Below are positions 894 to 19,659 of a DNA stretch of 32,000 bases, piece after piece. Positions within the stretch are counted from its first letter, which is position 1. Each line of letters starts with the position of its first letter. The stretch spans positions 2,040,001 to 2,072,000 of the forward strand of contig NZ_CP011034.1 in NCBI RefSeq assembly GCF_001465295.1, written 5' to 3'. Source of the stretch: Pseudoalteromonas translucida KMM 520 (GTDB lineage Bacteria > Pseudomonadota > Gammaproteobacteria > Enterobacterales > Alteromonadaceae). The notes under the pieces were generated by a model. The model was not told the origin of the DNA. It did no database searches and saw only the letters and a program-made list of their open reading frames with translations. The position numbers were made by a program, and so were the translations under genes.

Positions 894-913
894 TTATCAC
901 TGCCTTTAACGGC

Positions 914-4783: not shown

Positions 4784-7366
4784 ATGTTTAAGGACACTAA
4801 TAAACTCACTTCTAAACTTCGCAGCAATAGCATAGCGGCTGTAGAAAGCGATCAAAAAATAACTTATTCACTATTAATTGAAAAAGCAGAAGGCATTGCC
4901 TCAAAGTTAGGATCACAAAGAAGTCTTATTTTATTAGAGTGTACTCCAAGTATTGATTGGCTAATATCTTACGTAGCTATTTTACTAGGTAAGCATGTTG
5001 CTTTGATGCTTCCTCCTAATAATGAGGAAATGGCTTCTCGGTTAGGAGAAGCTTTCGACGCTAACTTTATAATAAAAACTACTAATGGCATCGACGTTGA
5101 GAAACTAAGTAGTAAAAAAGTAAATTTACATGAAGATCTCTGCTTACTTTTATCTACTTCTGGCTCGACTGGAAGCCCTAAATGTGTAAAATTATCCTAT
5201 GACAATATCGAGGCAAATACAGTCTCTATAATTGAATATTTAGGTATAGATAAACAAGACATTGGCATTGTTAATTTACCAACCAATTATTCATATGGCC
5301 TTTCAATTGTTAATACTCATTTATTTTGTGGTGCAACAATTGGGTTTAATACTCATGCAATTTACACAAAAGAGTTTTGGAATTTTTGTAAAGAACAAAA
5401 CGCAACAAGTTTTGCCGGTGTACCTCACAATTTCGATCTATTATCAAAAATTAATTATCAACAATTAATCCCCTCATCTATAAAGTACTTCACACAAGCT
5501 GGCGGTAAACTGGCAACGAATATTGTTTCTGAATTTGCGAGTTTTGCAAAAGCTAGAGGCTGCAAATTTTTTGTTATGTATGGACAAACAGAAGCCTCAC
5601 CGAGAATGTCTTACTTACCACCGGATATGTGTGAATCAAACCCAAATTCAATAGGTATACCAATCCCTAGAGGAGAATTCAAAGTAGTTGATGATAAAAA
5701 TAAAGAGCTCCCACCTGGAGAACAAGGCGAATTAATTTATAACGGCCCGAACGTGATGATGGGCTATGCCATAGAAAAAGATGATCTAAAAAAAGATAAA
5801 GAAACATTCGAATTAAAAACTGGTGACATTGCTAAAAAATCCTTAGATGGACTTTATTTTGTAACAGGAAGGATGAGCCGTTTTATAAAAGTATTTGGCA
5901 ACAGGATAAGTTTGGATCAAATAGAGGTTATGTGCAATGAACAGCATTTTGATGCGATTTGTACTGGAGTAGATGAAAAGCTGTTAATAGTTACTCGCCA
6001 AGAAAGTAAAATCAATCATATTAATGAATACTTTCAACAACACTTAAAGCTGCCTAAATCATCGATTAAAGTAGTGTTTAAAAAAGAGTTTCCTACCTTA
6101 GACACAGGTAAGTTCGACTATAACTCTATAAAAATGGAACTTACTCAATCTAACAAAAAAAATAACGAGCAATCGGCTTTAAGTATTAATGATACTTACA
6201 TAAGTATTTTTGGGGAGCTAGCAAAAAACAAATCGTATTCATTTTTTGATTTAGGTGGAGACTCTCTGACTTTTTTTTCAATCTCAATAGAATTAGAAGA
6301 AAAATTAGGCTACTTACCAGAAAACTGGACAAATATATCAATTGCTGGGCTAGAATCTTTACCCAAAAAGCTTATAAATAACTCTAACACTAAAAGTACT
6401 TCATTTAAAAACTTAGTGAATTTAGATTCACTAAGAGCATTTGCTTGTATATTAGTAGTTGCTTTTCATGTGTTTGGTAGCGAGCCACACTATGGCCTGG
6501 GTTATGCAATGGACTCACCGTGGCGTTCTATTTTTGATGTTTTTGATTTAATTCGAATACCTTTATTTACTGCTCTTGCAGGAATTGTGTTTATAGCAAT
6601 ACTTTCAAGTGAAAATAAAATCTTTCAGTTTTTATTTTGTAAAATAACATCTCTATTATTACCAGCCGTTGTTGTTTCAATATTATATTTTCTTTTAAGG
6701 AACATAATAGGTAAAGAAGATGGTGACTTAGGTACATACTTAATATCGGGTTATTTACATTTGTGGTATCTCTACTCACTATTTGTGATAGCAACGGTTA
6801 TAGGAACTATACACTTACGATTTAGACCAAGCTTTTATACTTACATAATAAGTATGATTTTACTTTACGCATTGAGTCTGACTATAAGCGGGCATGTTTT
6901 GTTTTGGGTTTACGCCAGTGTTGAACTAGCACCGTATTTCATTCTAGGAATGCTACTTTATAAGCACCCTCATAAGTTTTTGAATAAAACTATTTTAACA
7001 ATTGCAGCCATCCTAGCTTTATTAGGTACTTGCTTACGTGTAGCTTCATTTTTTGAAATAGTAAATAGAGATTTAATCTTGGTATATTTTACTTTTATAA
7101 CCTCAATAAGCCTTATAATTATATCTTATTTTTTCTTTCCTAAAATCAAAGTTATCCAATGGATTGGCCTATATTCATACTCCATATACCTGTGGCACCC
7201 TGCAGCAGCGAGTACAGCCAGAACAATCCTTACAACTATCGGTATTGATAATCACTTCTTACTATTTTTAGTTCTATTAATTGCAGGCATTTTAATACCT
7301 GTTGTCATGTATAAAGCAGCAAAATTTTTACCCAGATTAATTAGAATGTCTCTAGTTGGGCGGTAA
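4784..7366 (+). CDS. Tri-domain fusion: AMP-forming adenylation domain + phosphopantetheine carrier (PCP/ACP) + acyltransferase-3 (AT3, OafA/NolL-type) integral membrane domain
   Basis: Adenylation cores: ITYSLLIEKAEGIA (A1), LLLSTSGSTGSPKCVKLS (A3), YGQTEASP (A5), GELIYNGPNVMMGY (A6), KTGDIA...GRMSRFIKVFGNRISLDQIE (A7/A8), PTLDTGKFDY (A10). Carrier motif FFDLGGDSLTFFSISIELEEKLG, with Ser494 at nt 6263-6265. AT3 signature LDSLRAFACILVVAFHVFG, with His562 at nt 6467-6469, followed by about 10 hydrophobic segments to the C-terminus. Confidence 0.8.
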   Translation: MFKDTNKLTSKLRSNSIAAVESDQKITYSLLIEKAEGIASKLGSQRSLILLECTPSIDWLISYVAILLGKHVALMLPPNNEEMASRLGEAFDANFIIKTTNGIDVEKLSSKKVNLHEDLCLLLSTSGSTGSPKCVKLSYDNIEANTVSIIEYLGIDKQDIGIVNLPTNYSYGLSIVNTHLFCGATIGFNTHAIYTKEFWNFCKEQNATSFAGVPHNFDLLSKINYQQLIPSSIKYFTQAGGKLATNIVSEFASFAKARGCKFFVMYGQTEASPRMSYLPPDMCESNPNSIGIPIPRGEFKVVDDKNKELPPGEQGELIYNGPNVMMGYAIEKDDLKKDKETFELKTGDIAKKSLDGLYFVTGRMSRFIKVFGNRISLDQIEVMCNEQHFDAICTGVDEKLLIVTRQESKINHINEYFQQHLKLPKSSIKVVFKKEFPTLDTGKFDYNSIKMELTQSNKKNNEQSALSINDTYISIFGELAKNKSYSFFDLGGDSLTFFSISIELEEKLGYLPENWTNISIAGLESLPKKLINNSNTKSTSFKNLVNLDSLRAFACILVVAFHVFGSEPHYGLGYAMDSPWRSIFDVFDLIRIPLFTALAGIVFIAILSSENKIFQFLFCKITSLLLPAVVVSILYFLLRNIIGKEDGDLGTYLISGYLHLWYLYSLFVIATVIGTIHLRFRPSFYTYIISMILLYALSLTISGHVLFWVYASVELAPYFILGMLLYKHPHKFLNKTILTIAAILALLGTCLRVASFFEIVNRDLILVYFTFITSISLIIISYFFFPKIKVIQWIGLYSYSIYLWHPAAASTARTILTTIGIDNHFLLFLVLLIAGILIPVVMYKAAKFLPRLIRMSLVGR

Positions 7367-7388
7367 TTGATACACTGTGATAATGTTC

Positions 7389-7406
7389 CAGAACTGACTA
7401 GTTCTG
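7389..7406 (+). terminator. Weak hairpin downstream of the A-PCP-AT3 gene (cagaact-gact-agttctg, then aattt)
   Basis: A 7-bp perfect stem with a 4-nt loop, 23 nt after the TAA at 7364-7366. The stem is AT-rich and the U-tract is poor, so terminator function is uncertain. Confidence 0.3.
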
Positions 7407-7530
7407 AATTTACCTGTTGGCCCAAAAGTAAAGGGTTGCGTACGGGATATATTCAAACAGAACTGCTGCAGCAAAAAGTTTCTGTCGAGCCGTGCAATAA
7501 CACCGCTCGCCTCCGTTGGGTGGATTACTT

Positions 7531-8256
7531 CTAATGTACAACTAAATTGTAAAAAAATTTCGGTATACCAATTACATACCTATTAAACAAACGCTGAGGC
7601 TCTACAAGTAAGCGATAAAACCACTCTAACCCCAATGTTCTAAGTATTTCAGGGGCTCTTTTAACCTTCCCTGCTTGAAAGTCAATAATTGCCCCTCCAC
7701 AAATGATCAAGGAGGGAACATCAATGCTTGATAATATCACGGCTAACTTTTCCTGCTTGGGCATCCCCATAGCAAGCACAACGCAGTTTAAAGCTGTTTT
7801 TTCTGAGTTATTTTTAAAATTTTCTATATAGAGATTATCTTGCTCAAAACCATTCATTTTTATTACTTCTTCTGTTTTGAATAAAGTTTTCGAACCTTGA
7901 GTTAACCAAGGTTCAGTTGCCCCGTAGGCGAAAAATTTAACAGTTCGATTTGACATTTTTAGCGCGTTAACAATAGCCGGAATTACATCTGTACCATTAA
8001 AGTTATCTTTAGGATCTATTCCATATATTTTACAAGCTAATTTCACACCTATGCCATCTCTTAAAAGGTGTGTTAAGGATAGAAAGTTTTCGCGTACACT
8101 ATCATCGTCATGCATTAAATTGATACTGTGCTGGTTAACAAACCCAACTGTGTTTGATAACTCACTCTGTAGGAGGCTTGCTATAAATCCATCTAAATCA
8201 TCATAATTTAGGTAGCTAATTTTATTTAAAATTTCTTTGTTACTCATTGCTATCAT
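7531..8256 (-). CDS. WecB/TagA/CpsF-family (GT26) glycosyltransferase
   Basis: 241 aa with a typical GT26 layout: GFVNQHSINL..., DGIGVKLACKIYG..., NGTDVIP..., FFAYGA..., LAMGMPKQE..., ICGGAIIDFQAGKVKRAP...LGLEWFYRLLVEPQRLFNRY. The start could be M4 (nt 8247). Confidence 0.8.
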   Translation of the reverse strand: MIAMSNKEILNKISYLNYDDLDGFIASLLQSELSNTVGFVNQHSINLMHDDDSVRENFLSLTHLLRDGIGVKLACKIYGIDPKDNFNGTDVIPAIVNALKMSNRTVKFFAYGATEPWLTQGSKTLFKTEEVIKMNGFEQDNLYIENFKNNSEKTALNCVVLAMGMPKQEKLAVILSSIDVPSLIICGGAIIDFQAGKVKRAPEILRTLGLEWFYRLLVEPQRLFNRYVIGIPKFFYNLVVH

Positions 8257-9439
8257 CCCCTCTATCTGTCCGTATCCAAGACTTTTGCCGATTTTTAACG
8301 AATGATTTATAAATATTTATCTTAGCTAATAGATACTTATACAAAGTTCCGAAATCTTTTAAAGGTATTATCTCTCTGCCCATTACGAACCATACAAGAC
8401 CTAAACTAAGTAAAAGAATAAACAGTGAAATAATAGAAAAATAGAACGGAATAAATATATTAAAAAGCATCATTATCAAAAAAAAGAAAGAACAACAAAA
8501 AACTATAAAGAACCATAAAACAGTTGGTGGAAGCATGGCATCAAAAATCGTAAAACAGCTTTTTATTTTAAGCTGAGCTAGGCTTCTTATAAATTTTTTT
8601 GGTAACAAGGTAATTGAGCTTAAGTGACCGTGCTCCCATCTCGTACGCTGAGTGTTGTTTCCAATAACTGAAGTAGGAAAGTAACTTAACACTTGAGAAA
8701 AGCTATCATAAATTATTTTTTCTCCTTGGGCAGTTAATTTTAAACCTAGCTCTAAATCCTCAACAATACTACCTGAAGCAAACGTAATATTATTTAGAAC
8801 TCTCGCAGGAAAGGCCATACCTGATCCCTGCAGTTGACAGTTTATTTTAAAAAAAGCAAGACCTTGTGGTCGAGTAATGTTTTTTATAGCCCAAGCAAAT
8901 TGGGCCACATTTGTTGTAATTGTAGCGTGAGCATGTGACTTCATTACGTATGCGGATTGAATAACAGCGTCTTCCATAATACAACGCCGAGTTAGGGTAT
9001 AAAAACTTCCCTCTGTAAACTCACAGTCAGCGTCAAATATTATAATTACTGAAGGATTAAACGGTTTTAAATACTCTACACCGGCTTCAATTGCGTAACC
9101 TTTACCAACAAAGTCCAGACTGTTTCTAATTAAAACTTTTGCTCCAAATGATTTGGCGATTGAAGCTGTCGCGTCTGTACAGTTATCTGCTATAACAAGC
9201 ACTTTAGATAAGCTAACAATTTCTCTTTTTAGCTTTGTAAGTGTATCTTTAATTATCTTTTCTTCATTATGCGCAGGTATAACTATATAAGCATTATCAA
9301 CGTCACTGTTAATGGCCATATTTTTATTTGTACCTCGATAATAAAGGCCAATAATTAACTCAATTGATAAAAATAGTGTTGGCAAAAAGATAAATATAAA
9401 TACAATTAAACCAATGAATATATCTATAAAACTTATCAT
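8240..9439 (-). CDS. Membrane-embedded family-2 glycosyltransferase with the D, DxD, xED, QxxRW signature of processive synthase-type GT2s
   Basis: N-terminal TM helix, VIPAHNEE, FDADCEF, GSIVEDLELG, QRTRWEHG, then 3-4 C-terminal TM helices (TVLWFFIVFCCSFFFLIMMLFNIFIPFYFSIISLFILLLSLGLVWFV). Confidence 0.8.
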   Translation of the reverse strand: MISFIDIFIGLIVFIFIFLPTLFLSIELIIGLYYRGTNKNMAINSDVDNAYIVIPAHNEEKIIKDTLTKLKREIVSLSKVLVIADNCTDATASIAKSFGAKVLIRNSLDFVGKGYAIEAGVEYLKPFNPSVIIIFDADCEFTEGSFYTLTRRCIMEDAVIQSAYVMKSHAHATITTNVAQFAWAIKNITRPQGLAFFKINCQLQGSGMAFPARVLNNITFASGSIVEDLELGLKLTAQGEKIIYDSFSQVLSYFPTSVIGNNTQRTRWEHGHLSSITLLPKKFIRSLAQLKIKSCFTIFDAMLPPTVLWFFIVFCCSFFFLIMMLFNIFIPFYFSIISLFILLLSLGLVWFVMGREIIPLKDFGTLYKYLLAKINIYKSFVKNRQKSWIRTDRGDDSNE

Positions 9440-10644
9440 TTCACACCATAAATTAGAGCGGCTAGTTTACTCACTTCCTGCTCAATATCATGTTTTTCAG
9501 CTACAGCTTTATAAGCTAAGAAAACCATACTCTTAATTTCGTCATCTGACATTTTAATAAACTTGGTTATCGAGTCTTTTATAACTAATGTATCACCTGC
9601 GTGAAATAAAAGGCCTTGCTTTTCATTCGTTATAAGCTCCGGGATACCAGCAATATAAGTGGTCATCACAGGTCTGCCTACTGCCATTGCTTCCATTATG
9701 GCTACAGGTAATCCTTCTGCAAAGCTAGGTAGGATCATAGCATCTGACGCTAATAATAAATTATGTACTTCCTCAGAACTTATCCATCCAGTAATCCGAA
9801 CATTTTTTCCCAAGTTATTGGCTTTGATGAATTTTTCGATATCACCTCGCATCTCACCATCACCCGCTAAAATTAAATTGATATTATCTCCCTCATCTAA
9901 AACCATTTTTAATGCTTTAAGTAAAAGTAATTGTCCTTTTTGTTCACATAACCGACCAATACATAATAATTGTTTAATCTCGCTAGCCTGAGGTAGCAAT
10001 GGCTGTCCTTTTAAAAAGTTATCGTCAAGACCACACCGTACTATCTCAATTTTCTTCCAATCATTATAATTTGCCCATCTAAATAGCTGAGACCTACAAT
10101 AGCTAGTTATAGCAACAACAAACTTTGCATGACTAATCTTTTCTTTTAAGTGCAATCCTAATGGTTTATCAAACTCCTCAGGGCCATGCACTGTAAAACT
10201 ATAATCAACACCTGAGATCATACCCGCTAACATGGTGACTTCTGCGGAGTTTGTACCAAAGTGTGCGTGAATATGTTTGCTATCAGTTTCACAGCAATAA
10301 GCTGATAATTTACATGCTTCAACAAGGTAAATAAGGTGATATAACACGCCTCTTTCAGACATTTTTGCCATATTAACTGCTGCTATAAAAGCTGTCGTTA
10401 CTCTTTTTGGATACTTTATGAATGCTTTAAAAAATATTGGTAATAAGGGCCTAATTCCATTTTCTAAAATATAATTTGTTTTTTCCTGTTCGCAAAAATC
10501 AACTTTATCTTTTAAATCAGCATCCCAGCCTCTGAGTGCAACTCTCTGAACAATGAAACCTTTTTTTTCGAGTTCTAAAATCTCTCTTCTAATAAAAGTG
10601 TGGCTAACTTTTGGGTACTGGTTGATAAAATATGTTATGTTCAT
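9436..10644 (-). CDS. GT4 (GT-B, WcaL-like) glycosyltransferase
   Basis: 402 aa. N-terminal YFINQYPKVSHTFIRREILELEKKG resembles WcaL-type GTs. The C-terminal EX7E region is PSFAEGLPVAIMEAMAVGRPVMTT. ATGA-type 4-nt overlaps at both ends. Confidence 0.85.
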   Translation of the reverse strand: MNITYFINQYPKVSHTFIRREILELEKKGFIVQRVALRGWDADLKDKVDFCEQEKTNYILENGIRPLLPIFFKAFIKYPKRVTTAFIAAVNMAKMSERGVLYHLIYLVEACKLSAYCCETDSKHIHAHFGTNSAEVTMLAGMISGVDYSFTVHGPEEFDKPLGLHLKEKISHAKFVVAITSYCRSQLFRWANYNDWKKIEIVRCGLDDNFLKGQPLLPQASEIKQLLCIGRLCEQKGQLLLLKALKMVLDEGDNINLILAGDGEMRGDIEKFIKANNLGKNVRITGWISSEEVHNLLLASDAMILPSFAEGLPVAIMEAMAVGRPVMTTYIAGIPELITNEKQGLLFHAGDTLVIKDSITKFIKMSDDEIKSMVFLAYKAVAEKHDIEQEVSKLAALIYGVK

Positions 10645-11156
10645 TTTTTGTCACCTTTAAAAGTGATTTTTGCAGGGATCCCAACAGCTATACTATTGGC
10701 AGGTACATCTTTATTCACCAGAGTCATAGCACCTATTGTACAATTAGAGCCAATTTTAATATCTCCTAAAATCATACTATTGGCGCCAATATCAACATTA
10801 TCACCTATTTGAGGACATCCACTCCCCTCATATTTATTGCCAATAGTTATACCGTGCCTAAGCGTGCACTGCTTGCCAATGACAACGTCAGGATGAATGA
10901 AGATTTGCCCAAAATGCCATATTTTCAAGCCAGGTCCAACTTTAACTTCTTTGGGTATACTGATACCAAATAAGCTTTCAAATAACCTAAACAGAACATA
11001 ATAGGGGATATATAATATTTTTTTTATTATGTCATTATTCACAGTCTCAATACGAGCTCCTAATCTGTAAATAAAAATACAATATATTGACTGCTCTCTT
11101 AGAAATGCGCTATAGCCCCCATACCTTTTTAAATCATATTTAAAATATTTACTCAT
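10641..11156 (-). CDS. Hexapeptide-repeat (LbH) O-acetyltransferase, serine-acetyltransferase/WcaB-like
   Basis: 171 aa. Left-handed beta-helix repeats IGKQCTLRHGITIGN...IGDNVDIGANSMILGDIKIGSNCTIGAMTLV. Confidence 0.8.
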   Translation of the reverse strand: MSKYFKYDLKRYGGYSAFLREQSIYCIFIYRLGARIETVNNDIIKKILYIPYYVLFRLFESLFGISIPKEVKVGPGLKIWHFGQIFIHPDVVIGKQCTLRHGITIGNKYEGSGCPQIGDNVDIGANSMILGDIKIGSNCTIGAMTLVNKDVPANSIAVGIPAKITFKGDKK

Positions 11157-12382
11157 ACATCTTCCTTATCTAGGTTAGTACTTTGACAATTGAATTGTGA
11201 ATAAACAAAAAATATTCCTATAAAAAACCAGAAATACCAATTATATGAGAGGTAAAAAAGCAGGTTATCTGAATAACCAACAACTAAATACGATATTACT
11301 AACCCAATAATTATTGCACCGCCTTTTTTATCTACTTTAAAATACTTTATCATTCGAGCCAGTATCATAGAAAAAAGAAACAGATAAGCTATTACCCCAA
11401 AAAAACCCATATCAAAGGCAATTTGTACGTAAGTATTATGGGCATCAAAGCTAGTATCAGATTCAAGTGGGAAAAATTCTAAAAAATAGTATGAAAACGA
11501 GTTATAGCCGTGTCCAAAAAATGGTTTCTCCATTATATAGCCCCAAGCTGCACTCCAAACAACGTTCCTCCACGCATAAGAGTTTAGCTTTCCTCCCTCC
11601 TCTAAAATATCAATGCTATTTCCTGAGAAAATATCTAAAATACGCTCTTGGATAGAGGGAATTAGGAATGCTATAAATGTCAATAAAATCAAGTACACTA
11701 TATACCTACGCTCAATTAATAAGCCATAGACCAAAAACACTATAACCAGTGCAATCCAAGCACTTCTCGTTTTGGTAGCAAGTAGGCAAATGATGCAAAA
11801 CATAAATATAATTTTGGCGTGTTTTATAAATTTCACATCAAAAGCAATTAGCGTAGATTTAAAAGTAAAAAAACAAATAGACGAGATCAGCACTAAGTAA
11901 AAAGCAAAAATATTCGGGTGAGAAAAACTCCCAAAAACTCTAAAACCATCATTACCAGTACTTCCGGCTGGGAATATAAATTCAACACCAGCAAATACAA
12001 AAGGGATAATAGAGGAATAAATTATTAACTTTATTAAGACCTTCACCTCGGCCTCTTTTTTTACATAATAAAACGGGATCAAAAACCAAGAGAAATATGT
12101 AATAACAGTAAAAAAAGAACGTAGAGACGATATTTTATCCGGTGAAATACTTATAGATAAAAGTCCGATAACAATGAAAGGCGACCAGATTTTTATAATA
12201 CTTTTGGAAACTAGCATATTATTTTTAAGTATAAGGTTGCATACACATAACACTAAAATAAAATTAATTATTGCACCAAAGCCAATCCCTCCAACTCTAG
12301 TAAGATCCAAAATTGGGTCTAAAGAAGATCTCAAAAGTAATAAAATGAATATAGTTTGTGAAAAGTAAAAAAATGATTTCAT
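11153..12382 (-). CDS. O-antigen-ligase/Wzy_C-family polytopic membrane protein, probable EPS repeat-unit polymerase (Wzy)
   Basis: 409 aa with about 10-11 TM segments. Wzy_C-type motifs ATKTRSAWIAL and FDAHNTYVQIAFDMGFFG. It lies inside the GT/wzx operon with ATGA overlaps on both sides. Confidence 0.7.
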   Translation of the reverse strand: MKSFFYFSQTIFILLLLRSSLDPILDLTRVGGIGFGAIINFILVLCVCNLILKNNMLVSKSIIKIWSPFIVIGLLSISISPDKISSLRSFFTVITYFSWFLIPFYYVKKEAEVKVLIKLIIYSSIIPFVFAGVEFIFPAGSTGNDGFRVFGSFSHPNIFAFYLVLISSICFFTFKSTLIAFDVKFIKHAKIIFMFCIICLLATKTRSAWIALVIVFLVYGLLIERRYIVYLILLTFIAFLIPSIQERILDIFSGNSIDILEEGGKLNSYAWRNVVWSAAWGYIMEKPFFGHGYNSFSYYFLEFFPLESDTSFDAHNTYVQIAFDMGFFGVIAYLFLFSMILARMIKYFKVDKKGGAIIIGLVISYLVVGYSDNLLFYLSYNWYFWFFIGIFFVYSQFNCQSTNLDKEDV

Positions 12383-13233
12383 TTCTTAATCAGTTTCCAC
12401 TTAATACGACGCAGAAAAGTTTTCATTCTGAAGCCCAGTAATAAAAACAGAGCACTTTGAAAATTCATTTTTACTTGCTTATAACTCAAAAGCGTATCTG
12501 TTAACTCAACCTTTTCAATAAAGCTCAATGGCTCCAGTTTATTTTTCAATAATAAAAAAGCAAACTTTATTTTTGATGCTTTTTTATCAGAAATCCTCTC
12601 CCAACTATGAGTGGTATCAACAATATATGAATATGTATTAATATTAAAAAAAGTACCATATTGCTTAGCGACACGAATCCACATTTCCCAATCTTGCAAT
12701 GCTGGCATGTCTTCTGCAAATCCCCCTAAAGCTTTCATATAGGCTGTTTTAGTAAAAATTTGATTACCAATTAGGTTTTCTGTTCTAAGATCTCTGTAGT
12801 TCACTTTCAACGATTGATGAGTTTTTAATTTATGTGTCGCTGTTATTTCAATCATAGAATCAAACAAGCCAGCAATACTTGTAGTATCTTTAAATTCATT
12901 CCAGTAATGAACAAATTTTTCTACACGCCAACTTTCAAAATAGTCATCATCATCTAGTCCGGTTATAAAAACCCCTTCGGCTAGTGAGATTGCTTTATTA
13001 CGCCCATAACACGCCCCCTTAGATTCGCCTGATGAATTAATAGTGCTTATTAATAGCCCTTTACACTCCATTTCCTTTAGGTAGTTGTGCGTACCATCTG
13101 TAGAGCCATCGTCGGCTACCACTATTTGTATATTGTCGTAACTTTGAATCAACACGGAATTTACAGCCCGTTTTAATAACTCAACTCTATTGAACGTAGT
13201 TATATATACTGTTACTTTCATAAGATTACTCAT
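12379..13233 (-). CDS. Family-2 glycosyltransferase (soluble GT-A type)
   Basis: VTVYITTFNR...SVLIQSY...VVADDGSTDGT...GLDDDDYF are classic GT2 N-terminal motifs. Confidence 0.85.
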   Translation of the reverse strand: MSNLMKVTVYITTFNRVELLKRAVNSVLIQSYDNIQIVVADDGSTDGTHNYLKEMECKGLLISTINSSGESKGACYGRNKAISLAEGVFITGLDDDDYFESWRVEKFVHYWNEFKDTTSIAGLFDSMIEITATHKLKTHQSLKVNYRDLRTENLIGNQIFTKTAYMKALGGFAEDMPALQDWEMWIRVAKQYGTFFNINTYSYIVDTTHSWERISDKKASKIKFAFLLLKNKLEPLSFIEKVELTDTLLSYKQVKMNFQSALFLLLGFRMKTFLRRIKWKLIKK

Positions 13234-13475
13234 ACTTTATCTTCTAAGGTAAAACACAATGCACTGGCTCTACCTTATTATTAAGTAAGTTTCTTCGATG
13301 ATATTTAAATTTATTATTTTTAATATCAAAAACTCACCTCAAAATAAAATAATACCTTCGTCATGACATTTAAAAATTAATATAACTTTCTCTATTTCAG
13401 ATTTCTCTAGTGTTTTTATTGGAATTAACTTAATAACTCTGTGTTAAAAAATGCTCAGTGTTTTTATAAATAAAC

Positions 13476-14753
13476 TTAGCATAACCACGTTTTTAATTTA
13501 GTGATTTTATACACTTCTATCGACATCAATATATTCCATAATACTAAGCTAATACTTACAGCTAAAGCAGCGCCAATTGCTTTATATTCGGGAACTAAAA
13601 TAAATAACAGTACAATATTAGTTAATAAAGTAATGAGTAATGCTTTCAAAGAACGCTTTTCATTCCCAGTCATATTGAGGACTAAACCAACTGAGCCAAA
13701 ACATATATTGAGAATTTGGCCAACACTTAAAATTATAAGGATCAGATGGGAAGCTGCATATTGATCTCCAAACAAGATTCTTATAAACCTTTCACCTAGG
13801 AAAATTAAAATAATTACAATAGGTAATGAAAAAATAGCGTTTAATTTTACACTTTTTGTCAAAAGAGCCTGTGTAGAGTTCATATCACCACTACGATATA
13901 ACCTAGCTACTTTTGGCCCTATAATAAGATTCACAGAAGTAAAGCCTAAAGTAACTAATGTCACTCCTTGTAAAGCAACTTTAAAAAAACCAACTGACTC
14001 TTTATCTGCAAAATAACCTAAAAAAACACTTGCAAGCTCCGAATTCATCGTGCTGATAAGTACCATCAACGTAAAAGGTAATAACGCAAAATGCCACCTT
14101 TTAAAATAGTATTCTGCCTTAATACTTTTTAGCTTATGAGCGCGTACTTTTAATATTAGTCCTGCCCCTAACAAAAGCGTTAATGCTGATGTGATTAATT
14201 GCACTTTTATTAGTAATAAGCTGCTGAACTCTATTTGTAACGCTATAAAAATCAAGTAAATAAAAACAGCTAAAAAGGGCATTAAAATAAACTCAGGTAA
14301 TAAACCTAAAATTGGCTTTCTAAAGCCATTTAATATAGCGCCTTGATTTGTGCAGAAGCTTTTTATTGGGATCAGCAGCACCGCAAACCAAAGCAAGTTA
14401 GCAGTCTCACCTTTGATAATACCTGTGTATAAAAAAGCTAGAATAGCAAGCATCACCACAGCAGAAGTGCTAACAATAAATGCTGTTGACCACTGCAGTA
14501 AGCCTTTTAGTTCACTCCACTTACTCTCCAACTCAGCATGTGCTATTTCGCGTATTAACAACTGGGGTAAACCAGCAATAACTGGAATCGTTGCCATAGC
14601 AATTATCGATAAAATATAAGTGTATAATCCATACTGTTCTGGCCCTAAATAGCGTGCAAGAATAACACCGGCAATAACAGACAATACTCTGCTAACAACT
14701 TGTAGGCCGGCTGTACCCAAAAATTTATTTAAAATCACTGGCGATTGATTCAA
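13476..14753 (-). CDS. wzx: Wzx-type oligosaccharide flippase (MOP/PST family)
   Basis: 425 aa with about 12 TM segments. N-terminal VVSRVLSVIAGVILARYLGPEQYGLYTY is typical of polysaccharide-biosynthesis (PST) flippases. It is the first gene of the minus-strand GT operon. Confidence 0.85.
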   Translation of the reverse strand: MNQSPVILNKFLGTAGLQVVSRVLSVIAGVILARYLGPEQYGLYTYILSIIAMATIPVIAGLPQLLIREIAHAELESKWSELKGLLQWSTAFIVSTSAVVMLAILAFLYTGIIKGETANLLWFAVLLIPIKSFCTNQGAILNGFRKPILGLLPEFILMPFLAVFIYLIFIALQIEFSSLLLIKVQLITSALTLLLGAGLILKVRAHKLKSIKAEYYFKRWHFALLPFTLMVLISTMNSELASVFLGYFADKESVGFFKVALQGVTLVTLGFTSVNLIIGPKVARLYRSGDMNSTQALLTKSVKLNAIFSLPIVIILIFLGERFIRILFGDQYAASHLILIILSVGQILNICFGSVGLVLNMTGNEKRSLKALLITLLTNIVLLFILVPEYKAIGAALAVSISLVLWNILMSIEVYKITKLKTWLC

Positions 14754-14993: not shown

Positions 14994-15722
14994 GTGTCGC
15001 ATCTAAATTTTAAGGAACTACTTGTGCGTTTTGGATGCTACATTTTAATCTTGTTATCTTTTTTTGTTTGCTCACAAGACATGCTTATTTACTTGCGTCA
15101 TAGTGAAATAACTGATCGGGCGAAACAATATTACGGTGAAGAGGGTCACAGACGTATAAAGCAGTGGCTTAAGTTTATTGATGCATCTATTGATAAAAAT
15201 GAATGGCGCCAGGTACATCTGGTTAATAATTTTTTTAATAAACATATAAAATACAAAACAGATAATGAGCTTTGGAATAAAAATGATTATTGGGCTACAC
15301 CAATAGAAAGTTTGGGTGTGGGTATGGGGGATTGTGAGGACTACGTTATAGCTAAATACTTTACTTTAATTGCGCTTGGTATTCCTGAAGAAAAAATAAG
15401 GTTTATGTATGTGCGTCAACACACCATTAATCAGCCTCACATGGTACTAATATACTTTCCTGAAGCAGACCAAATTCCTTTTGTTTTGGGTAACTTTAAT
15501 ACCCAGTTACTCCCCGCAAATAAACGCAACGATTTAACACCTATATACAGTTTTAATGGCCAAGGTTTATGGTTAGCCAAAGCAAAAGGGCTTGGCAATA
15601 AAGTTAAAAATAGTAGCGGTGTGTCGGCTTGGGATACTATGCTAAAAAGAATTGAAAAAGGTGAACTTGCTCTCGTTAATAGTACTAATACAGGAGGCGC
15701 AAATAATGTATCACCCTTTTAA
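14994..15722 (+). CDS. lapG: LapG-type periplasmic Ca-dependent cysteine protease (bacterial transglutaminase-like cysteine proteinase, BTLCP)
   Basis: VNNFFNKHIKYKTDNELWNKNDYWATPIESLGVGMGDCEDYVIAKYFTLIALGIPEEKIRFMYV...QPHMVLIYF...NDLTPIYSFN closely follows the LapG C-H-D catalytic core as I remember it. The track ORF starts at GTG 14994. An internal GTG at 15024 has a better RBS (AAGGAA, 6-nt spacer) and gives a clean signal peptide, M-RFGCYILILLSFFVCSQD. Confidence 0.85.
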   Translation: MSHLNFKELLVRFGCYILILLSFFVCSQDMLIYLRHSEITDRAKQYYGEEGHRRIKQWLKFIDASIDKNEWRQVHLVNNFFNKHIKYKTDNELWNKNDYWATPIESLGVGMGDCEDYVIAKYFTLIALGIPEEKIRFMYVRQHTINQPHMVLIYFPEADQIPFVLGNFNTQLLPANKRNDLTPIYSFNGQGLWLAKAKGLGNKVKNSSGVSAWDTMLKRIEKGELALVNSTNTGGANNVSPF

Positions 15723-17712
15723 ACAAGGTATTAGTCTTAAAACACAGATCTATGGGTTAATCATTTGTATTTCAATTTTATCTTTTTTTGTAAGAGTTAT
15801 TATTGATGTAGATACAACCCGAGACTATTTACAAACGCAAATGGCAAGCCATGCAAAAGATACTGCAACAAGCTTAGGCCTTTCTATCTCCCCTTATTTG
15901 GATACAGATGGCCTTATAGTAGGGCAAACTATGGCAACCGCAATTTTTGATTCTGGTTATTATAGTAAAATACGCTTTATAAATACAAAACATGAAACGC
16001 TATTCTCATTAGAAAACCCAACTCATGTCGACTCTGTGCCTCTGTGGTTTACAAACACCGTAGAGTTAAGCGCACCCACAATGCAATCTGAAATAAATAC
16101 GGGTTGGATCATTGCTGGTACACTTGAAGTTACTAGCCACTTGGGGGAGTCATACTTAACTTTATGGCAGCACACAAAGCGTAGCTTTTATAGTTCGCTC
16201 ATACTGTTAATTGCTTCACTGCTGATCACATATTTTATTTTACAAACAATATTCAAACCTTTAAAAGCAGTTGAAAAACAAGCACTACTTGTGACTCGCA
16301 AACGCTTTACACTCAATAATAAAGTACCGTTAGCCCAAGAGTTGCGCATAGTAACCAAAGCAATTAATAATATGGTGCTTAATTTACAAAGTACATTCGA
16401 CTCTTTAGCTAAACAAACCCAAGCGCTAACAAGCGCCGTGTATAGTGACCCACTCACAGGGTTAGGTAATCGCAAATCTTTTGAAAACTATTTTAATGCT
16501 ATTACTCACTCCATTACCCCTGAGCGACCAATGACAGCAACAATGGTCACACTCCCCTCGCTAGTAAATATTAATCAAACGCTTAGTTATCAAAGTGGTG
16601 ATGAGTATGTAACCGACGTTGCTAAAATATTAAAACTCTCTTTAGCTGATCTAAATAACTATAGGTTATGCCGAATAAATGGCAGCACCTTTGTTTTTAT
16701 TGCGCCATACGACATTACGTTTTTATATAATTTACACGCTAATCTTATTGAACTGTTTAGCCAAAAACAGCACAGTTCACATAATAATGGTTATGCTCGC
16801 TTAGCCTCTATAAATGTTGAAAAAAGCTTAACACTGAGTCATTTACTTTCGTCATTAGATACAAGATGTACTATTGGAGAAAGTACGATTGACGCTAACA
16901 TTGATAACAAAATAGTCTTTAGTGTAGAAGAGTGGCAAAAAATAATTCAGAGCATAATTAACTCTGGGGAAGTGAGCTTTTCAGTACAGCCTGTGAAAAA
17001 AAGTAATACCGAGCTTACACAGTGCTACTTTGAAGTATTTGCGCACTTTATCCATAACAATGAAAAAATAAACAATAGTCACTTATTCGCTATGGCCGAA
17101 AAGTTAAACTTAACAGAAGAGCTAGATAAAAAATTAATCCGTGATTTTATTAATATTAAAGTGCAATACCCAGAGGATAAATTCGCCTTAAATATAAGTA
17201 AGTCCTCGCTATATTCACCGGAGTTTATTCAGTGGCTAGGTGCGTTTTCTCAACACTACCCCAGCCTCAAAAACAATCTTATTTTTGAGCTACATGAATT
17301 GAGCTTACTAAGTAATATACGCGTTGCTGCACTTCATATTGATGCGATAAAAGAGGTTGGTATTAGTGTATGCGTAGAGCACTTTGGCACCAGTTTAACC
17401 TCTTTTAAATATTTACATGGCCTAGATATTGAGTATGTAAAAATTGACGGTAGCTACATTCAAGATTTAGTTGATAATCCTCAAAGTCGCTTTTATATTC
17501 AAACGGTAAATAATATTTGTCATGGTTTTGGTATTAAAGTTTTAGCGTGTTTAATTGAAAAACCCGAAACATTAAACATACTCGAAAGCTTAGGTTGTGA
17601 TGGTGTTCAAGGGAATTTAATTTGCTCGACCTCACAAGTAATCAACATTATTGATAAAAACACAAATAAAAAGTTTACTTTTCATCCAAATGTATTAGAA
17701 TTTTGTAAGTAG
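15706..17712 (+). CDS. lapD: LapD-type inner-membrane c-di-GMP receptor (LapD/MoxY N-terminal periplasmic domain, HAMP, degenerate GGDEF, degenerate EAL)
   Basis: I chose the ATG at 15706, which follows AGGAGG with about an 8-nt spacer; the track ORF begins at 15652 inside lapG. Layout is TM - periplasmic domain - TM - HAMP (IFKPLKAVEKQ...INNMVLNLQSTF). The GGDEF position reads SGDEY. EAL motifs are degenerate: EVF for EAL, EHFGT for DDFGTG, ACLIE for AEGVE. NISKSSL, ELHE, KIDGSYI and QGNLI are retained. Confidence 0.85.
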   Translation: MYHPFKQGISLKTQIYGLIICISILSFFVRVIIDVDTTRDYLQTQMASHAKDTATSLGLSISPYLDTDGLIVGQTMATAIFDSGYYSKIRFINTKHETLFSLENPTHVDSVPLWFTNTVELSAPTMQSEINTGWIIAGTLEVTSHLGESYLTLWQHTKRSFYSSLILLIASLLITYFILQTIFKPLKAVEKQALLVTRKRFTLNNKVPLAQELRIVTKAINNMVLNLQSTFDSLAKQTQALTSAVYSDPLTGLGNRKSFENYFNAITHSITPERPMTATMVTLPSLVNINQTLSYQSGDEYVTDVAKILKLSLADLNNYRLCRINGSTFVFIAPYDITFLYNLHANLIELFSQKQHSSHNNGYARLASINVEKSLTLSHLLSSLDTRCTIGESTIDANIDNKIVFSVEEWQKIIQSIINSGEVSFSVQPVKKSNTELTQCYFEVFAHFIHNNEKINNSHLFAMAEKLNLTEELDKKLIRDFINIKVQYPEDKFALNISKSSLYSPEFIQWLGAFSQHYPSLKNNLIFELHELSLLSNIRVAALHIDAIKEVGISVCVEHFGTSLTSFKYLHGLDIEYVKIDGSYIQDLVDNPQSRFYIQTVNNICHGFGIKVLACLIEKPETLNILESLGCDGVQGNLICSTSQVINIIDKNTNKKFTFHPNVLEFCK

Positions 17713-17737: not shown

Positions 17738-18280
17738 ATGAAATCAATTATCTTATTTGGACTAATAGTAGGGCTGTGTGTACTTTATGTACCGCAAACT
17801 TATGCACAAACTAATACATCAAAATCTGTTCAGTCTGCAGGAACAGACAACTTGATTTCGATTTTAAGTAATGCACCAATAGATGTGTCTCCTGAGCAAC
17901 TACAACAAGACTTAGTTGCCGCCATTAAAATTATTTGTAAAAACAATATAAAAAACCAACTAGACAAAACCTTGCCACGAGGCAACTGTAGTAACGCTCA
18001 GGTTGATCAAATGGTTACTGCCGTTGTTGCTGCTTTTGGTGTAGACAGCCCTATGGTTGCTGCTTTATTAGCTGCACTTTCAGCATACGGAGTAGATTCT
18101 GACACTATTACACTTGCTGCAATTAATGCGGGCATAGATGCTACTATTGCTTCACAAGCCACGGCTGCAGGCCCTACCCAAGCACAACCTAATCCTCCAA
18201 TTAGCTTACCTGTATTACCTACCCCTCCTGGATCGGGTGGTACTGGTGGTGATGCTGGTATATCTGAAGTTGGTAACTAA
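17738..18280 (+). CDS. Small Sec-secreted Ala-rich protein with three degenerate internal repeats, a TAAG motif and a Pro/Gly-rich tail (hypothetical)
   Basis: AAGGG RBS, 25 nt after the lapD stop. Signal peptide MKSIILFGLIVGLCVLYVPQTYA|Q. Repeats VTAVVAAFGVDSPM / VAALLAALSAYGVDSDT / ITLAAINAGIDATI. TAAG at residues 142-145 (nt 18161-18172). Tail PTQAQPNPPISLPVLPTPPGSGGTGGDAGISEVGN. I recognise no family. Confidence 0.7.
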   Translation: MKSIILFGLIVGLCVLYVPQTYAQTNTSKSVQSAGTDNLISILSNAPIDVSPEQLQQDLVAAIKIICKNNIKNQLDKTLPRGNCSNAQVDQMVTAVVAAFGVDSPMVAALLAALSAYGVDSDTITLAAINAGIDATIASQATAAGPTQAQPNPPISLPVLPTPPGSGGTGGDAGISEVGN

Positions 18281-18287
18281 CTTTATT

Positions 18288-18323
18288 AAATATAAATGCA
18301 GCCTTAGCGCTGCGTTTATATTT
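18288..18323 (+). terminator. Rho-independent terminator after the small secreted-protein gene
   Basis: aaatataaatgcagc-cttagc-gctgcgtttatattt forms a 15-bp stem with one G-U pair and a GC-rich top (gcagc/gctgc). The 3' arm runs into a T-rich tract (gtttatattttg). Confidence 0.75.
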
Positions 18324-18333
18324 TGAGAACACT

Positions 18334-19659
18334 GTGAATCGCTTTATATTTTTTGTTATATGTTTAATTATTTTTTTACTCCCCCTCCCCCTTGGCAGTT
18401 ATCGTCCATGGGCAATATTAACTATAGGCGTGTTAATTAGCTTTACGTTTTTAGTGCATTTATTTAATAGTACTATTAAAAATAAACAACTGCTTTATCC
18501 TCCTTTATACTCTTGGCCTATATTTATTGCTCTTGGCGTTGTTGTTTTAGTATGCACAATACAGCTATTTGGCATAAGTGTTGATCCGTTTCAAACTCAG
18601 CAAATGTTAATTAAAACCTGGTTTATGATACTATTTTGCTGGTTAATTTTTATTTACTGTAACCACTCCTTACGAATTAAAAAGCTAGTTTACACTGTTA
18701 TTTTTGCTGGGGTTTTTCAGGCTTTATATGCAAGTTATTTAAGCTTATCACCCGATATTATTAGCCCATTATTTAGTTATAAACATACCGATCGTGCTAT
18801 TGGTACTTTTACTTATTCTAACTTTTTAGCCAACTATTTAGCGCTGTGCTTATGCTTAGGCATTGGTGTGTTGATCAGTGAGTTAAAACGCTCTGCTAAC
18901 GACAATACACGATCACTCGCACAAACATTACGTGACTGGGCTGGCATATTATTAAGCTCTAAAATTGTGTTACGCGTATCATTAATTATTATTATTGTTG
19001 CCTTAATATTAACTCGCAGCCGTATGGGTAACTCGGCATTTTTTATCGCTTTAATGGCTATTAGCTTATTGGCTTTATTTATTTATAGGCAAAAGCCCAA
19101 AGCGTTTAAACACCTTATTATTAGCTTTTTTATTATCGATTTAATTATTATTGGTGCAATATTTGACGTTGAAAAAGTAAAACAGCGTATTAGCGAAACC
19201 AGTATACACTCAGAAACACGTGACGAAGTGGTACGCGACTCTATACCGCTTATATTAGATAAACCATTGCTGGGATCAGGTGGGGGTACTTTTTATACTG
19301 CTTTCCCTGCGTATCAATCAGAGCCCTTTTCTGGCTACTACGATAATGCGCATAACGATTATATACAATTTGCTGTGGAGCTAGGTATCCCGGCAACATT
19401 AGCGCTTGGTTTGCTGATACTTTATTGTTTATGGCTCTGTATTGTGACCATGCGCCAACGTAAAACCGCACTTTATCAAGGAGTGGCATTTGGCTGTGCT
19501 GTGGCTATTATTACTATGCTACTGCATTCTTTAGTAGACTATTCGCTGCAAGCTGGCGCTAATTCAATGCTGTTTATGGCTATTTTATGCTTGGCCATTT
19601 TAACTAATAAATTACCCGCGCCTAAAACTATAAAAAAAAGACGTAATCAAGCTAATTAG
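18334..19659 (+). CDS. Second O-antigen-ligase/Wzy_C-family membrane protein (WaaL-, PglL- or Wzy-like; function unresolved)
   Basis: 441 aa with about 11-12 TM segments. Motifs LTRSRMGNSAFFIAL and YYDNAHNDYIQFAVELGIPATL, plus a periplasmic loop between them. GTG start 10 nt after the terminator, with a weak RBS. Confidence 0.7.
   Translation: MNRFIFFVICLIIFLLPLPLGSYRPWAILTIGVLISFTFLVHLFNSTIKNKQLLYPPLYSWPIFIALGVVVLVCTIQLFGISVDPFQTQQMLIKTWFMILFCWLIFIYCNHSLRIKKLVYTVIFAGVFQALYASYLSLSPDIISPLFSYKHTDRAIGTFTYSNFLANYLALCLCLGIGVLISELKRSANDNTRSLAQTLRDWAGILLSSKIVLRVSLIIIIVALILTRSRMGNSAFFIALMAISLLALFIYRQKPKAFKHLIISFFIIDLIIIGAIFDVEKVKQRISETSIHSETRDEVVRDSIPLILDKPLLGSGGGTFYTAFPAYQSEPFSGYYDNAHNDYIQFAVELGIPATLALGLLILYCLWLCIVTMRQRKTALYQGVAFGCAVAIITMLLHSLVDYSLQAGANSMLFMAILCLAILTNKLPAPKTIKKRRNQAN

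Follow-up and report, generated by a model that had tools for sequence, protein, structure and literature searches.

The window considered here, a stretch of 32,000 nucleotides from Pseudoalteromonas translucida KMM 520 (contig NZ_CP011034.1, positions 2,040,001 to 2,072,000), contains a block of four genes on its forward strand: lapG, lapD, a small gene of an unannotated family (orf180), and a gene that encodes a membrane enzyme of the WaaL/Wzy_C superfamily. The Lap system is the textbook example of inside-out signalling by cyclic di-GMP (c-di-GMP), and giant surface adhesins are the outputs accepted for it. In this window the protein that follows lapG and lapD is small and secreted, is a candidate for a dedicated LapG substrate, and is accompanied by genes for polysaccharide synthesis; the observations described below suggest that the Lap switch, known for the release of giant adhesins, has been rewired here for the control of surface polysaccharide.

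The orf180 gene extends on the plus strand from an ATG codon at 17738 to the end of its stop codon at 18280, encodes a protein of 180 residues, is preceded by an AAGG Shine-Dalgarno-like motif, and begins 25 nucleotides after the lapD stop (17712). An intrinsic-terminator-like hairpin with flanking A/T tracts (18288..18323, -17.9 kcal/mol) lies between it and the Wzy_C gene, and the initial annotation of this locus, in which orf180 was described as starting 25 nucleotides past lapD and ending at a terminator, agrees with both the coordinates and the hairpin. A GC hairpin and T-run are present at the equivalent place in almost all of the 21 related loci described below, and their sequences differ.

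The encoded protein begins with a Sec signal peptide (residues 1-23; 17738..17806), read directly from the sequence as MKSIILFGLIVGLCVLYVPQTYA|Q (…VPQTYA|Q), which displays the n/h/c layout of Sec-type signals and a T-Y-A|Q cleavage site that is kept in homologs as YA|Q. A helical N-terminal region (residues 24-120; 17807..18097) follows, which contains C67 and C84 together with the first two Ala-rich helix-G-V-D-S repeats (G101 and G118), and which is the least conserved part of the protein between genera; the remaining member of the three G-[VI]-D units is found at G132. The next segment (residues 121-145; 18098..18172) corresponds to a putative LapG recognition region, composed of the helix TITLAAINA, the turn G-I-D-A-T, the sequence IASQA and the tetrapeptide TAAG (residues 142-145, nucleotides 18161-18172), within which the predicted scissile bond is A143|A144 (nucleotides 18164-18169). 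Beyond that point lie a Pro-rich disordered linker (residues 146-163; 18173..18226), whose length and composition differ between genera (N/G/T-rich in Colwellia, Pro-rich in Pseudoalteromonas), and a Gly-rich C-terminal tag, GSGGTGGDAGISEVGN (18227..18277), with invariant residues G170, I175 and S176. The signal peptide, the two cysteines, the three G-(V/I)-D copies and the location of TAAG had each been reported in the initial annotation, and all of them were confirmed in the sequence.

A structural model of orf180, calculated with AlphaFold2 (AF2) from an alignment of 25 sequences and having a predicted local distance difference test score (pLDDT) of 59.5, displays helices at residues 24-44, 52-68, 86-100, 105-117, 121-130 and 135-143 and a disordered tail at residues 146-180, with a pLDDT below 50 across the linker; the TAAG motif falls at the end of the last helix, at the boundary between helix and disordered tail. 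The protein as a whole matched no family in Pfam or NCBIfam and, in the PDB, neither a sequence nor a fold: a PDB profile search returned nothing meaningful, a Foldseek search with the model produced only generic helical repeats with a best E no better than 0.3, and Pfam matches to Atx10homo_assoc and DUF7439 were discarded as below threshold.

Several other assignments for the protein were considered and set aside. A lipoprotein was rejected: the signal peptide has no lipobox, with Leu as residue -1, and homologs lack the Cys. An RTX-nonapeptide reading of GGTGGDAGI was rejected because it does not fit GGxGxDxUx, places the hydrophobic position wrongly, and is replaced in other genera by plain poly-Gly. 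A sorting signal of the PEP-CTERM/GlyGly-CTERM type was likewise rejected, as orf180 ends five residues past G-I-S and has no C-terminal hydrophobic helix; no exosortase or rhombosortase Pfam match was found within the window. Finally, C67 and C84 are both invariant within Pseudoalteromonas, and the pair is not family-wide: the protein of one related locus (L021) has no Cys at all and the pair is missing from other members as well, so that a disulfide 'hook' was rejected as a general feature of the family.

The two genes upstream of orf180 are identified with confidence by sequence and structure matches, in agreement with their naming in the initial annotation. The lapG gene (14994..15722, plus strand) encodes a periplasmic Ca-dependent cysteine protease (BTLCP, Peptidase_C93; PF06035, E=3.7e-18) with a signal peptide and a Cys-His-Asp triad, which aligns with the LapG chains 4u65_E and 4fgo at E=5e-45 and keeps the GDCED and HMVL catalytic motifs. 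The lapD gene (15652..17712, plus strand; the ATG at 15706, inside the end of lapG, is probably where it really starts) encodes an inner-membrane c-di-GMP receptor in which LapD_MoxY_N (E=3.2e-39) with its LapG-binding Trp loop, HAMP, a degenerate GGDEF domain and EAL are all recognisable by sequence; the product matches the LapD structures 3pjw, 6pwj and 3pjv, and the G-W of its LapG-binding loop aligns with G-W in 3pjv. Both proteins score under the NCBI equivalog cutoffs (214 bits against 320 for the NCBIfam LapG model, and 302 bits against 1020 for the LapD model NF045673), and they are therefore divergent members of their families. In a rough neighbour-joining tree, LapGs linked to the Wzy_C gene cluster apart from those linked to type I secretion system (T1SS) genes in canonical loci, with one outlier. 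Separately, a Photobacterium damselae plasmid (p1_508, ~8800-40400; L036) was observed to carry two LapG-like BTLCP genes among more than 50 small hypothetical genes on the same strand, in a region with no lapD, T1SS or Wzy_C gene, a setting quite unlike the others in which this protease family was seen.

The gene that follows the hairpin (18334..19659, plus strand) encodes a WaaL-fold Wzy_C membrane enzyme, annotated as 'O-antigen ligase family' (PF04932, E=3.1e-21). Its AF2 model (pLDDT 83) gave a single significant PDB fold match, to WaaL (7TPG; Foldseek E=2.9e-7, TM 0.58-0.63), and its invariant positions include R214, R230, R285, R296 and H340, together with Asp, which places it in the WaaL/Wzy_C superfamily; no PglL- or TfpO-specific model or structure matched it. 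Homologs in Pseudoalteromonas, Colwellia, Moritella and other taxa are 47-97% identical (47-82% across genera). This gene is the most informative neighbour of orf180, and neither it nor its polysaccharide context was mentioned in the initial annotation.

Homologs of orf180 are distributed among Pseudoalteromonas, Colwellia, Moritella, Glaciecola and marine metagenome-assembled genomes (MAGs). A word-indexed search produced 65 homologs, of which all that were named by source came from Pseudoalteromonas and none was functionally annotated; an exhaustive search with a profile hidden Markov model (HMM) across 1.84 billion cluster representatives (50% identity clusters) produced 57 matches at E<=1e-3, nearly all of them small (145-310 residues), and no giant adhesin was matched by that search through the TAAG region. 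A further word-indexed profile search added little except Glaciecola. Two long matches (P0087 and P0109), which are eukaryote-like repeat proteins that align to the N-terminal part, were taken as spurious. The labels of named members go no further than 'hypothetical', 'orphan', 'signal peptide' or 'secreted' protein, and no Pfam or NCBIfam model exists for the family; that it is a real family of secreted proteins is nonetheless almost beyond doubt. One entry of 87 residues (P0069), 97% identical to the window protein, was deposited as a partial hypothetical protein of Escherichia coli from a contig of 262 nucleotides, and is almost certainly contamination or a mislabelled Pseudoalteromonas read.

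The members of this family share an architecture in which a signal peptide is followed by a variable number of Ala-rich repeats of 17-18 residues (of the form h-h-x-x-A-I-x-x-x-G-x-D-S), then by the motif G-[VI]-D-[A/P]-[T/S]-x-A-S-x-A-T-A-A-G, a low-complexity linker, a poly-Gly run and a C-terminal [G/T]-[I/V]-S-x(2-4). The helix-G-[VI]-D unit of orf180 appears in relatives as a clearer tandem repeat of 17-18 residues, with about five copies in one of them (L039). Across 117 complete-looking members, an N-terminal hydrophobic run was found in 114, TAAG in about 107, poly-Gly within the last 40 residues in 112, and [ITVL]-S within the last nine residues in 114; the median length past the predicted scissile bond is 40 residues. 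An array noted separately, in Moritella sp. PE36 (L038 7880-8926; 348 residues), repeats a 19-residue unit (…NTNPVISNELAQAEPIAKD…) about nine times in tandem after the signal peptide, and the helix, GIDAT, TAAG and a GGNGGISKNV end come next as usual.

Conservation was examined in an alignment of 18 sequences from Pseudoalteromonas, Colwellia and one Alteromonadaceae MAG, in which identity to the window protein declines to 27-33%. The invariant positions comprise M1, G101, L111, D122, T125 and A128, a group at the motif (D134, A138, S139, A141, T142, A143, A144 and G145) and three in the tail (G170, I175 and S176). A single occurrence of TAAG is weak evidence, since 2.1% of shuffles of mature orf180 contain that tetrapeptide (and 14% contain [TAP]AA[GV]); its invariance within a fast-evolving protein, in alignments where mean column identity is 34%, is not.

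The gene order was found to be as well conserved as the motif. A scan of a genome collection with the family profile identified 21 loci (15 from Pseudoalteromonas, five from Colwellia and one from an Alteromonadaceae MAG), in every one of which lapG, lapD and the small gene are present in one order and on one strand; the Wzy_C gene comes next in 20 of them, the exception (L011) being a cut contig. When all informative loci are considered, lapG (usually as lapG-lapD) is immediately upstream of the small gene in 29 of 31, and the small gene is upstream of, or adjoins, a Wzy_C gene in 29 loci. The PhoD/TatD/PilZ/HolB right flank is common to Pseudoalteromonas only, and the four-gene block is therefore conserved beyond the synteny of the genus. 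A search begun from the Wzy_C side led to the same arrangement in all three contexts examined (Moritella sp. PE36, a Moraxellaceae MAG and P. tunicata D2), each of them reading lapG, lapD, small protein, Wzy_C, and each small protein displaying TAAG or AAAG and a GGGG…GIS tail. The initial annotation had proposed that synteny of orf180 homologs with lapGD be checked, and they were found directly after lapG or lapG-lapD in each of the profile-found loci and on independent contigs.

The annotated flanks of these loci contain Wzx/Wzy-type polysaccharide genes. Sugar-nucleotide and glycosyltransferase genes flank the module in Colwellia (the left flank of C. piezophila), Moritella and MAGs; contigs reached from very distant members read glycosyltransferase genes, lapG, lapD and small gene (a stromatolite MAG) and priming transferase, lapG, lapD, small gene and Wzy_C (a marine metagenome contig). 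A chromid of Pseudoalteromonas sp. THAF3 carries a complete Wzc-OPX-barrel-PGT…VpsF/VpsD-like exopolysaccharide (EPS) locus (OPX, outer-membrane polysaccharide export; PGT, priming glycosyltransferase) that ends in lapG, lapD, the small gene and an 'O-antigen ligase family protein', and its small protein reads TAAG…GISESNQ.

Two loci (L028 2593-5365; L045 7226-10157) contain lapG, the small gene and the Wzy_C gene and no lapD. In both of them the di-alanine is degenerate (TASG and TSAY) and the catalytic Cys, His and Asp of LapG are intact, which fits, in these two cases, a selection of the motif that is tied to regulated cleavage. As a further observation, the linker is basic or aromatic and the last residue is Cys (…ISHNC, …VSPNC and …ISPNC) in the L028 protein and its relatives P0103 and P0107. 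In the two most distant members of the family (L041 8001-11145; L043 1189-3222), where no lapG is recognisable alongside, the pairing with a Wzy_C gene persists, as do TAAG and the Ser tail. The neighbours observed at the former are a VpsT-like regulator, an ABC/HlyD pair, three unannotated genes and a Wzb-like phosphatase, and a CpsB phosphatase gene lies upstream at the latter.

Optimal LapG substrates have been described as containing a targeting helix whose sequence is little conserved, a 'DP' turn and [T/A/P]AAG (PMC13090378; bioRxiv 10.1101/198937), and the layout of the orf180 family fits the rule given in PMC13090378: in orf180 itself the helix at residues 121-130 is followed by G-I-D-A-T, with Ala in place of Pro, and then by TAAG at 142-145, within the range of about 80-150 residues from the N-terminus that is typical of LapA-type cut sites. 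The retention_LapA model (NF033682) was the only NCBIfam model to recur in the family, matching 14 of 18 members at E<10, with other models matching at most two. The best match, to a DP-containing Pseudoalteromonas member, reached 21.9 bits (E=1.6e-4), and two matches for which coordinates are available cover profile positions 72-115 and 93-114, corresponding to the stretch that ends in TAAG; all scores in the family are under the 50-bit cutoff, and the profile's N-terminal domain is not matched.

Genuine lapGD/T1SS loci were taken from plasmid and chromid records, and the N-termini of their adhesins were read. The segments from Aeromonas (…EIAALQQSILQGVDPTKNFEASAAGGAPAAGGGGG), Halomonas (…LDALLAALDDGEGDLLDLLDATAAGGGAGGGGGG) and Vibrio fluvialis (…IFAALEEGQDPTQIDDAEAPAAGG) display the order that is also seen in the family consensus (…TLAAITAGVDATIASEATAAGP…), namely a helix, G-x-D-(P/A)-T, [T/S]AAG and a Gly-rich stretch, and this layout, with its six residues before [T/S]AAG, has an equal spacing from D to AA in the family and in the lapGD-linked adhesins of Aeromonas and Halomonas. 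The similarity is thus not limited to the tetrapeptide, which the initial annotation had named as the outcome that would count against its proposal; with the synteny, this result favours the idea, put forward there, that orf180 is a candidate LapG client of a different class.

The remaining features of LapA-type proteins are absent from orf180, which is 180 residues long, possesses a Sec signal, has no RTX repeats, and is modelled by AF2 as entirely helical as far as residue 143, with no beta-strand retention domain. Searches of the plasmids by tblastn gave no match with the family motif and tail, and only a self-match with the retention module of Marinomonas. Judged by its sequence, orf180 carries a LapG-type recognition motif upon a different scaffold and falls outside the retention-module family. 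One of the plasmids fetched for comparison, from Marinomonas algicola (L030 9776-10375, minus strand), contains a canonical T1SS/lapGD locus whose adhesin displays no clear [T/A/P]AAG in its first 260 residues (…LQRAIIDGQFESADGTQITLAADQQ…), followed by a long (PE)n linker; the cut site of that adhesin may be non-canonical.

The region to the left of lapG is occupied by a Wzx/Wzy-type EPS locus (1..14753) that is encoded on the minus strand with the exception of one gene. Its elements include a Wzc-like gene at the left edge of the window, a short OPX protein of 173 residues with Poly_export and SLBB domains (914-1435), a BBP2_2 outer-membrane beta-barrel (1432-2649), a priming phosphotransferase (2633-4036), a first Wzy_C gene (11153-12382) and a flippase (13476-14753), all on the minus strand, together with glycosyltransferases and acyltransferases. 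The combination of a short OPX protein and a separate barrel suggests a composite OPX/beta-barrel route of export in place of classical Wza; the trio of Wzc-like, OPX and barrel genes was also seen to recur on the THAF3 chromid (L029) and directly 5' of lapG in another locus (L012). The sole plus-strand gene within the EPS locus (4784-7366) encodes an 860-residue fusion of an AMP-binding (adenylating) domain and an Acyl_transf_3 membrane acyltransferase, which may acylate the polysaccharide.

Because the EPS locus already has a Wzy_C gene and a flippase of its own, the Wzy_C gene of the module is an extra copy, and a role as a ligase fits it better than a role as a polymerase; the EPS locus of the THAF3 chromid similarly contains a VpsF-family protein and a flippase-like protein besides the Wzy_C of the module. 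No T1SS gene (ABC, HlyD or TolC) or giant open reading frame (ORF) is present within the window, as the initial annotation had also noted, and in the related loci examined none was found in the genes that were annotated or scanned with Pfam. The Wzy_C gene is followed on its right by a PhoD-like gene and then by housekeeping genes. Between tatD and holB, a stand-alone PilZ-domain protein of 108 residues (22309-22635, minus strand), which is 90-99% identical across Pseudoalteromonas loci, represents a second c-di-GMP-related gene near the module.

The observed basis for an interpretation of this locus consists of the architecture of the gene and its family, the invariance of the motif, the identities of LapG, LapD and the WaaL-fold enzyme, and the synteny. 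That orf180 is a substrate of LapG is likely, judging from its motif and surroundings; that it is functionally coupled to the WaaL-type enzyme is slightly favoured; and the two possibilities together, in which orf180 is a dedicated periplasmic substrate of LapG/LapD that forms with the WaaL-type enzyme a conserved module at the end of EPS and capsule gene clusters, have about an even chance of being correct. The locus probably corresponds to a Lap-type proteolytic switch, responsive to c-di-GMP, that has a new and small class of client and a polysaccharide output.

It has been demonstrated that LapD binds c-di-GMP and sequesters LapG, and that at low c-di-GMP LapG cuts a periplasmic di-alanine (PMC3032545). 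The Sec signal of orf180 places the protein in the periplasm, where LapG acts. From this arrangement we infer cleavage at A143|A144, a relationship between the ligase and the tail, and polysaccharide attachment or release as the output. In the sequence of events proposed, orf180 would be exported via Sec and its signal peptide removed; at high c-di-GMP, LapG would be held by LapD at the inner membrane; and upon a drop in c-di-GMP, free LapG would dock on the helix at residues 121-130 and the G-I-D-A-T turn and cut A143|A144, parting the helical N-terminal domain from a flexible tail of about 37 residues that contains the poly-Gly run and the invariant G-I-S tag. The tail would most likely be acted upon by the WaaL-type enzyme, with Ser176 serving as the acceptor of an undecaprenyl-pyrophosphate-linked glycan, and the LapG cut would thereby couple the level of c-di-GMP to whether polysaccharide stays on the cell.

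A more specific version of this scheme, which we regard as unlikely in its details, is a protein-tethered EPS or capsule, in which the undecaprenyl-pyrophosphate-linked polymer of the adjacent Wzx/Wzy locus would be joined to Ser176 by the WaaL-type enzyme. The polymer and tail would then thread the OPX/beta-barrel translocon, and the helical N-terminal domain would act as a periplasmic stopper, in the manner of the LapA module in LapE; when c-di-GMP falls, LapG would cut at TAAG and the polysaccharide coat would be shed, the arrangement amounting to a 'LapA' in which a glycan replaces the adhesin.

A number of observations weigh against the reading of orf180 as a dedicated LapG substrate coupled to the WaaL-type enzyme. 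The window protein scores just 8.7 bits on NF033682 and has D-A rather than the canonical D-P; of the 110 members whose core motif could be located, only 13 have D-P. An HMM covering 30 columns of the family motif, compared with 1477 ORFs from eight plasmid-borne loci fetched via LapG-like matches (L030-L037, of which L036 is not a canonical lap locus), ranked the Aeromonas adhesin second, at E=0.42, and missed those of Vibrio and Halomonas; since it gave no significance on canonical cut sites, likeness is claimed at the level of the motif only. The close resemblance to the LapA retention module described in the initial annotation accordingly holds for the segment matched by NF033682, for the layout and for the spacing, and does not extend, given the low score and the helical N-terminal domain, beyond the motif. 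The two most distant members have no recognisable adjacent lapG. Most loci come from one order, the Alteromonadales, and some of the synteny is for that reason possibly inherited rather than selected; and the conserved terminator indicates that orf180 and the Wzy_C gene are separable and not obligately co-transcribed. The PDB library offered WaaL as the sole significant fold match, and the fold search is consequently unable to separate a ligase from a polymerase or a protein O-glycosyltransferase. Lastly, no obvious anchor to membrane or wall is seen in either cleavage product, and the scheme therefore does not account for the way in which cleavage would change polysaccharide retention.

Many of these observations would be accommodated if orf180 were not cut by LapG at all, TAAG being kept for structure or for the WaaL-type enzyme, and lapGD acting on a protein encoded elsewhere, such as a LapA-type adhesin, with the adjacency of the genes reflecting shared regulation or inherited gene order. 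The statistically weak likeness to true substrates, the DA found in most members, the two distant members without an adjacent lapG, and the terminator as a mark of separable units can each be read in this way, as can the retention of lapG by some members in which the di-alanine is degenerate. Such an explanation must contend with the finding that, in a protein that evolves fast, TAAG is conserved more than any other element and is positioned at a domain boundary, and with the presence of lapG directly upstream in 29 of 31 loci (in Pseudoalteromonas, Colwellia, Moritella, a Moraxellaceae MAG and a stromatolite MAG) despite differing outer flanks. It also offers no adhesin, as neither T1SS genes nor a giant ORF were seen in the window or among the genes scanned at related loci, and P. 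tunicata carries the module while its characterised adhesin, BapP, is without a retention module (PMC12153261); we consider it doubtful. The same absence of an adhesin partner at any locus examined bears upon the suggestion that orf180 is a decoy or competitor, a small soluble substrate that titrates LapG and so buffers the cleavage of a giant adhesin encoded elsewhere. Its LapG motif, its periplasmic location and its co-transcription with lapGD are compatible with that role, but a decoy would need no conserved C-terminal tag, WaaL-type neighbour or position in a polysaccharide locus, and the separate clustering of the Wzy_C-linked LapGs suggests a dedicated system. The Wzy_C neighbour and the polysaccharide context make a decoy less likely than a dedicated output, and it is judged to be very improbable.

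If cleavage by LapG is instead accepted, the function of the tail might still differ from that of an acceptor. The protein could be a partner or regulator of the WaaL-type enzyme, its Gly-rich Ser tail gating the ligase site as a pseudo-acceptor or adaptor, and the LapG cut toggling the ligase so that polymer either becomes attached to the cell, for example to lipid A-core, or is shed. The synteny and the conservation of the tail support such a role as much as they support the role of a substrate for glycan attachment; the contrast between a Wzy_C protein that is 47-82% identical across genera and a small protein at 27-33% is what would be expected of an enzyme and its fast-evolving regulator, and HvyA has been reported to block capsulation with the levels of export proteins unchanged (PMC4241560). 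A regulator acting in stoichiometric amounts has no obvious need for a helical repeat domain of variable copy number, however, and this alternative is regarded as quite unlikely.

Should the reading of orf180 as a dedicated client with a polysaccharide output be correct, it would add a second kind of output to the Lap system, namely the post-translational proteolytic control of surface polysaccharide, and would provide marine biofilm formers such as Pseudoalteromonas, Colwellia and Moritella with a direct link between c-di-GMP and the retention or shedding of EPS. The small size of orf180 should make it easy to express and to assay.

Among the closest known systems is that formed by LapA, LapG and LapD in Pseudomonas fluorescens (with FrhA/CraA, BrtA and DvhA as further examples), in which the same protease and receptor families are found side by side. 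The LapA-type substrates and orf180 have in common a helix, a D-P/A turn, [T/A/P]AAG and a Gly-rich flexible stretch, and a bulky domain that is N-terminal to the cut, on its periplasmic side. The members of the orf180 family are much shorter (145-350 residues, against more than 1000 for LapA-type proteins), are Sec-exported, and have no beta-sandwich retention domain, RTX repeats, T1SS signal or nearby LapEBC genes; past the linker they carry a Ser tag of 5-10 residues where LapA carries the adhesin, and their conserved neighbour, unlike that of the LapA system, is a WaaL-type enzyme within a polysaccharide locus.

A different comparison is provided by CdrA of Pseudomonas aeruginosa, a Sec-exported two-partner-secretion protein with TAAG near its C-terminus, which is, with HvyA (below), the nearest precedent for the module. 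It is unlike orf180 in being a beta-helical fibre of about 220 kDa that is exported by a TpsB partner, possesses a C-terminal periplasmic stopper and is accompanied by no ligase gene, and orf180 in turn has no two-partner-secretion domain or partner. Its export by Sec, which we take to proceed through two-partner secretion, makes it a counterexample to the statement in the initial annotation that known LapG clients lack signal peptides. That statement was wrong, since CdrA, which does not belong to the LapA-type T1SS adhesins, is accepted as a substrate of LapG (PMC4694147); it acts together with exopolysaccharide (PMC4694147; bioRxiv 10.64898/2026.07.13.738186).

The arrangement of the last two genes of the module resembles that of TfpO/PilO and PglL, in which the gene for a Wzy_C-family enzyme is located directly downstream of that for a small secreted acceptor (a role that is putative for orf180). 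TfpO and PilO modify a Ser at the extreme C-terminus of pilin, and the orf180 family displays an invariant Ser located 3-5 residues from its own C-terminus. Unlike the acceptors of TfpO/PilO, orf180 is not a pilin, and the window enzyme is placed by sequence and fold in the WaaL/Wzy_C superfamily only.

In the literature, no paper was found that joins LapG/LapD with an O-antigen ligase, an oligosaccharyltransferase or a small substrate of this type, and the only one that links this protease family to a capsule concerns HvyA of Caulobacter crescentus. HvyA is a periplasmic BTLCP that is encoded in a capsule export locus beside an O-antigen polymerase/ligase-like gene, and that negatively controls capsulation via an unidentified periplasmic target (PMC4241560), for which no later paper was found that gives a name. 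It differs from the LapG of the window in having no LapD, in being controlled through its cell-cycle-regulated abundance, and in that no small TAAG protein has been reported with it. HvyA represents an independent precedent for the control of capsules by a LapG-family protease, and it is related to the gammaproteobacterial module described here by analogy only. The small proteins described here constitute a concrete class of candidates for the target of capsule-controlling BTLCPs of that kind, and the tethering of a glycan to Ser176, if true, would indicate the class of target through which proteases such as HvyA govern capsulation.

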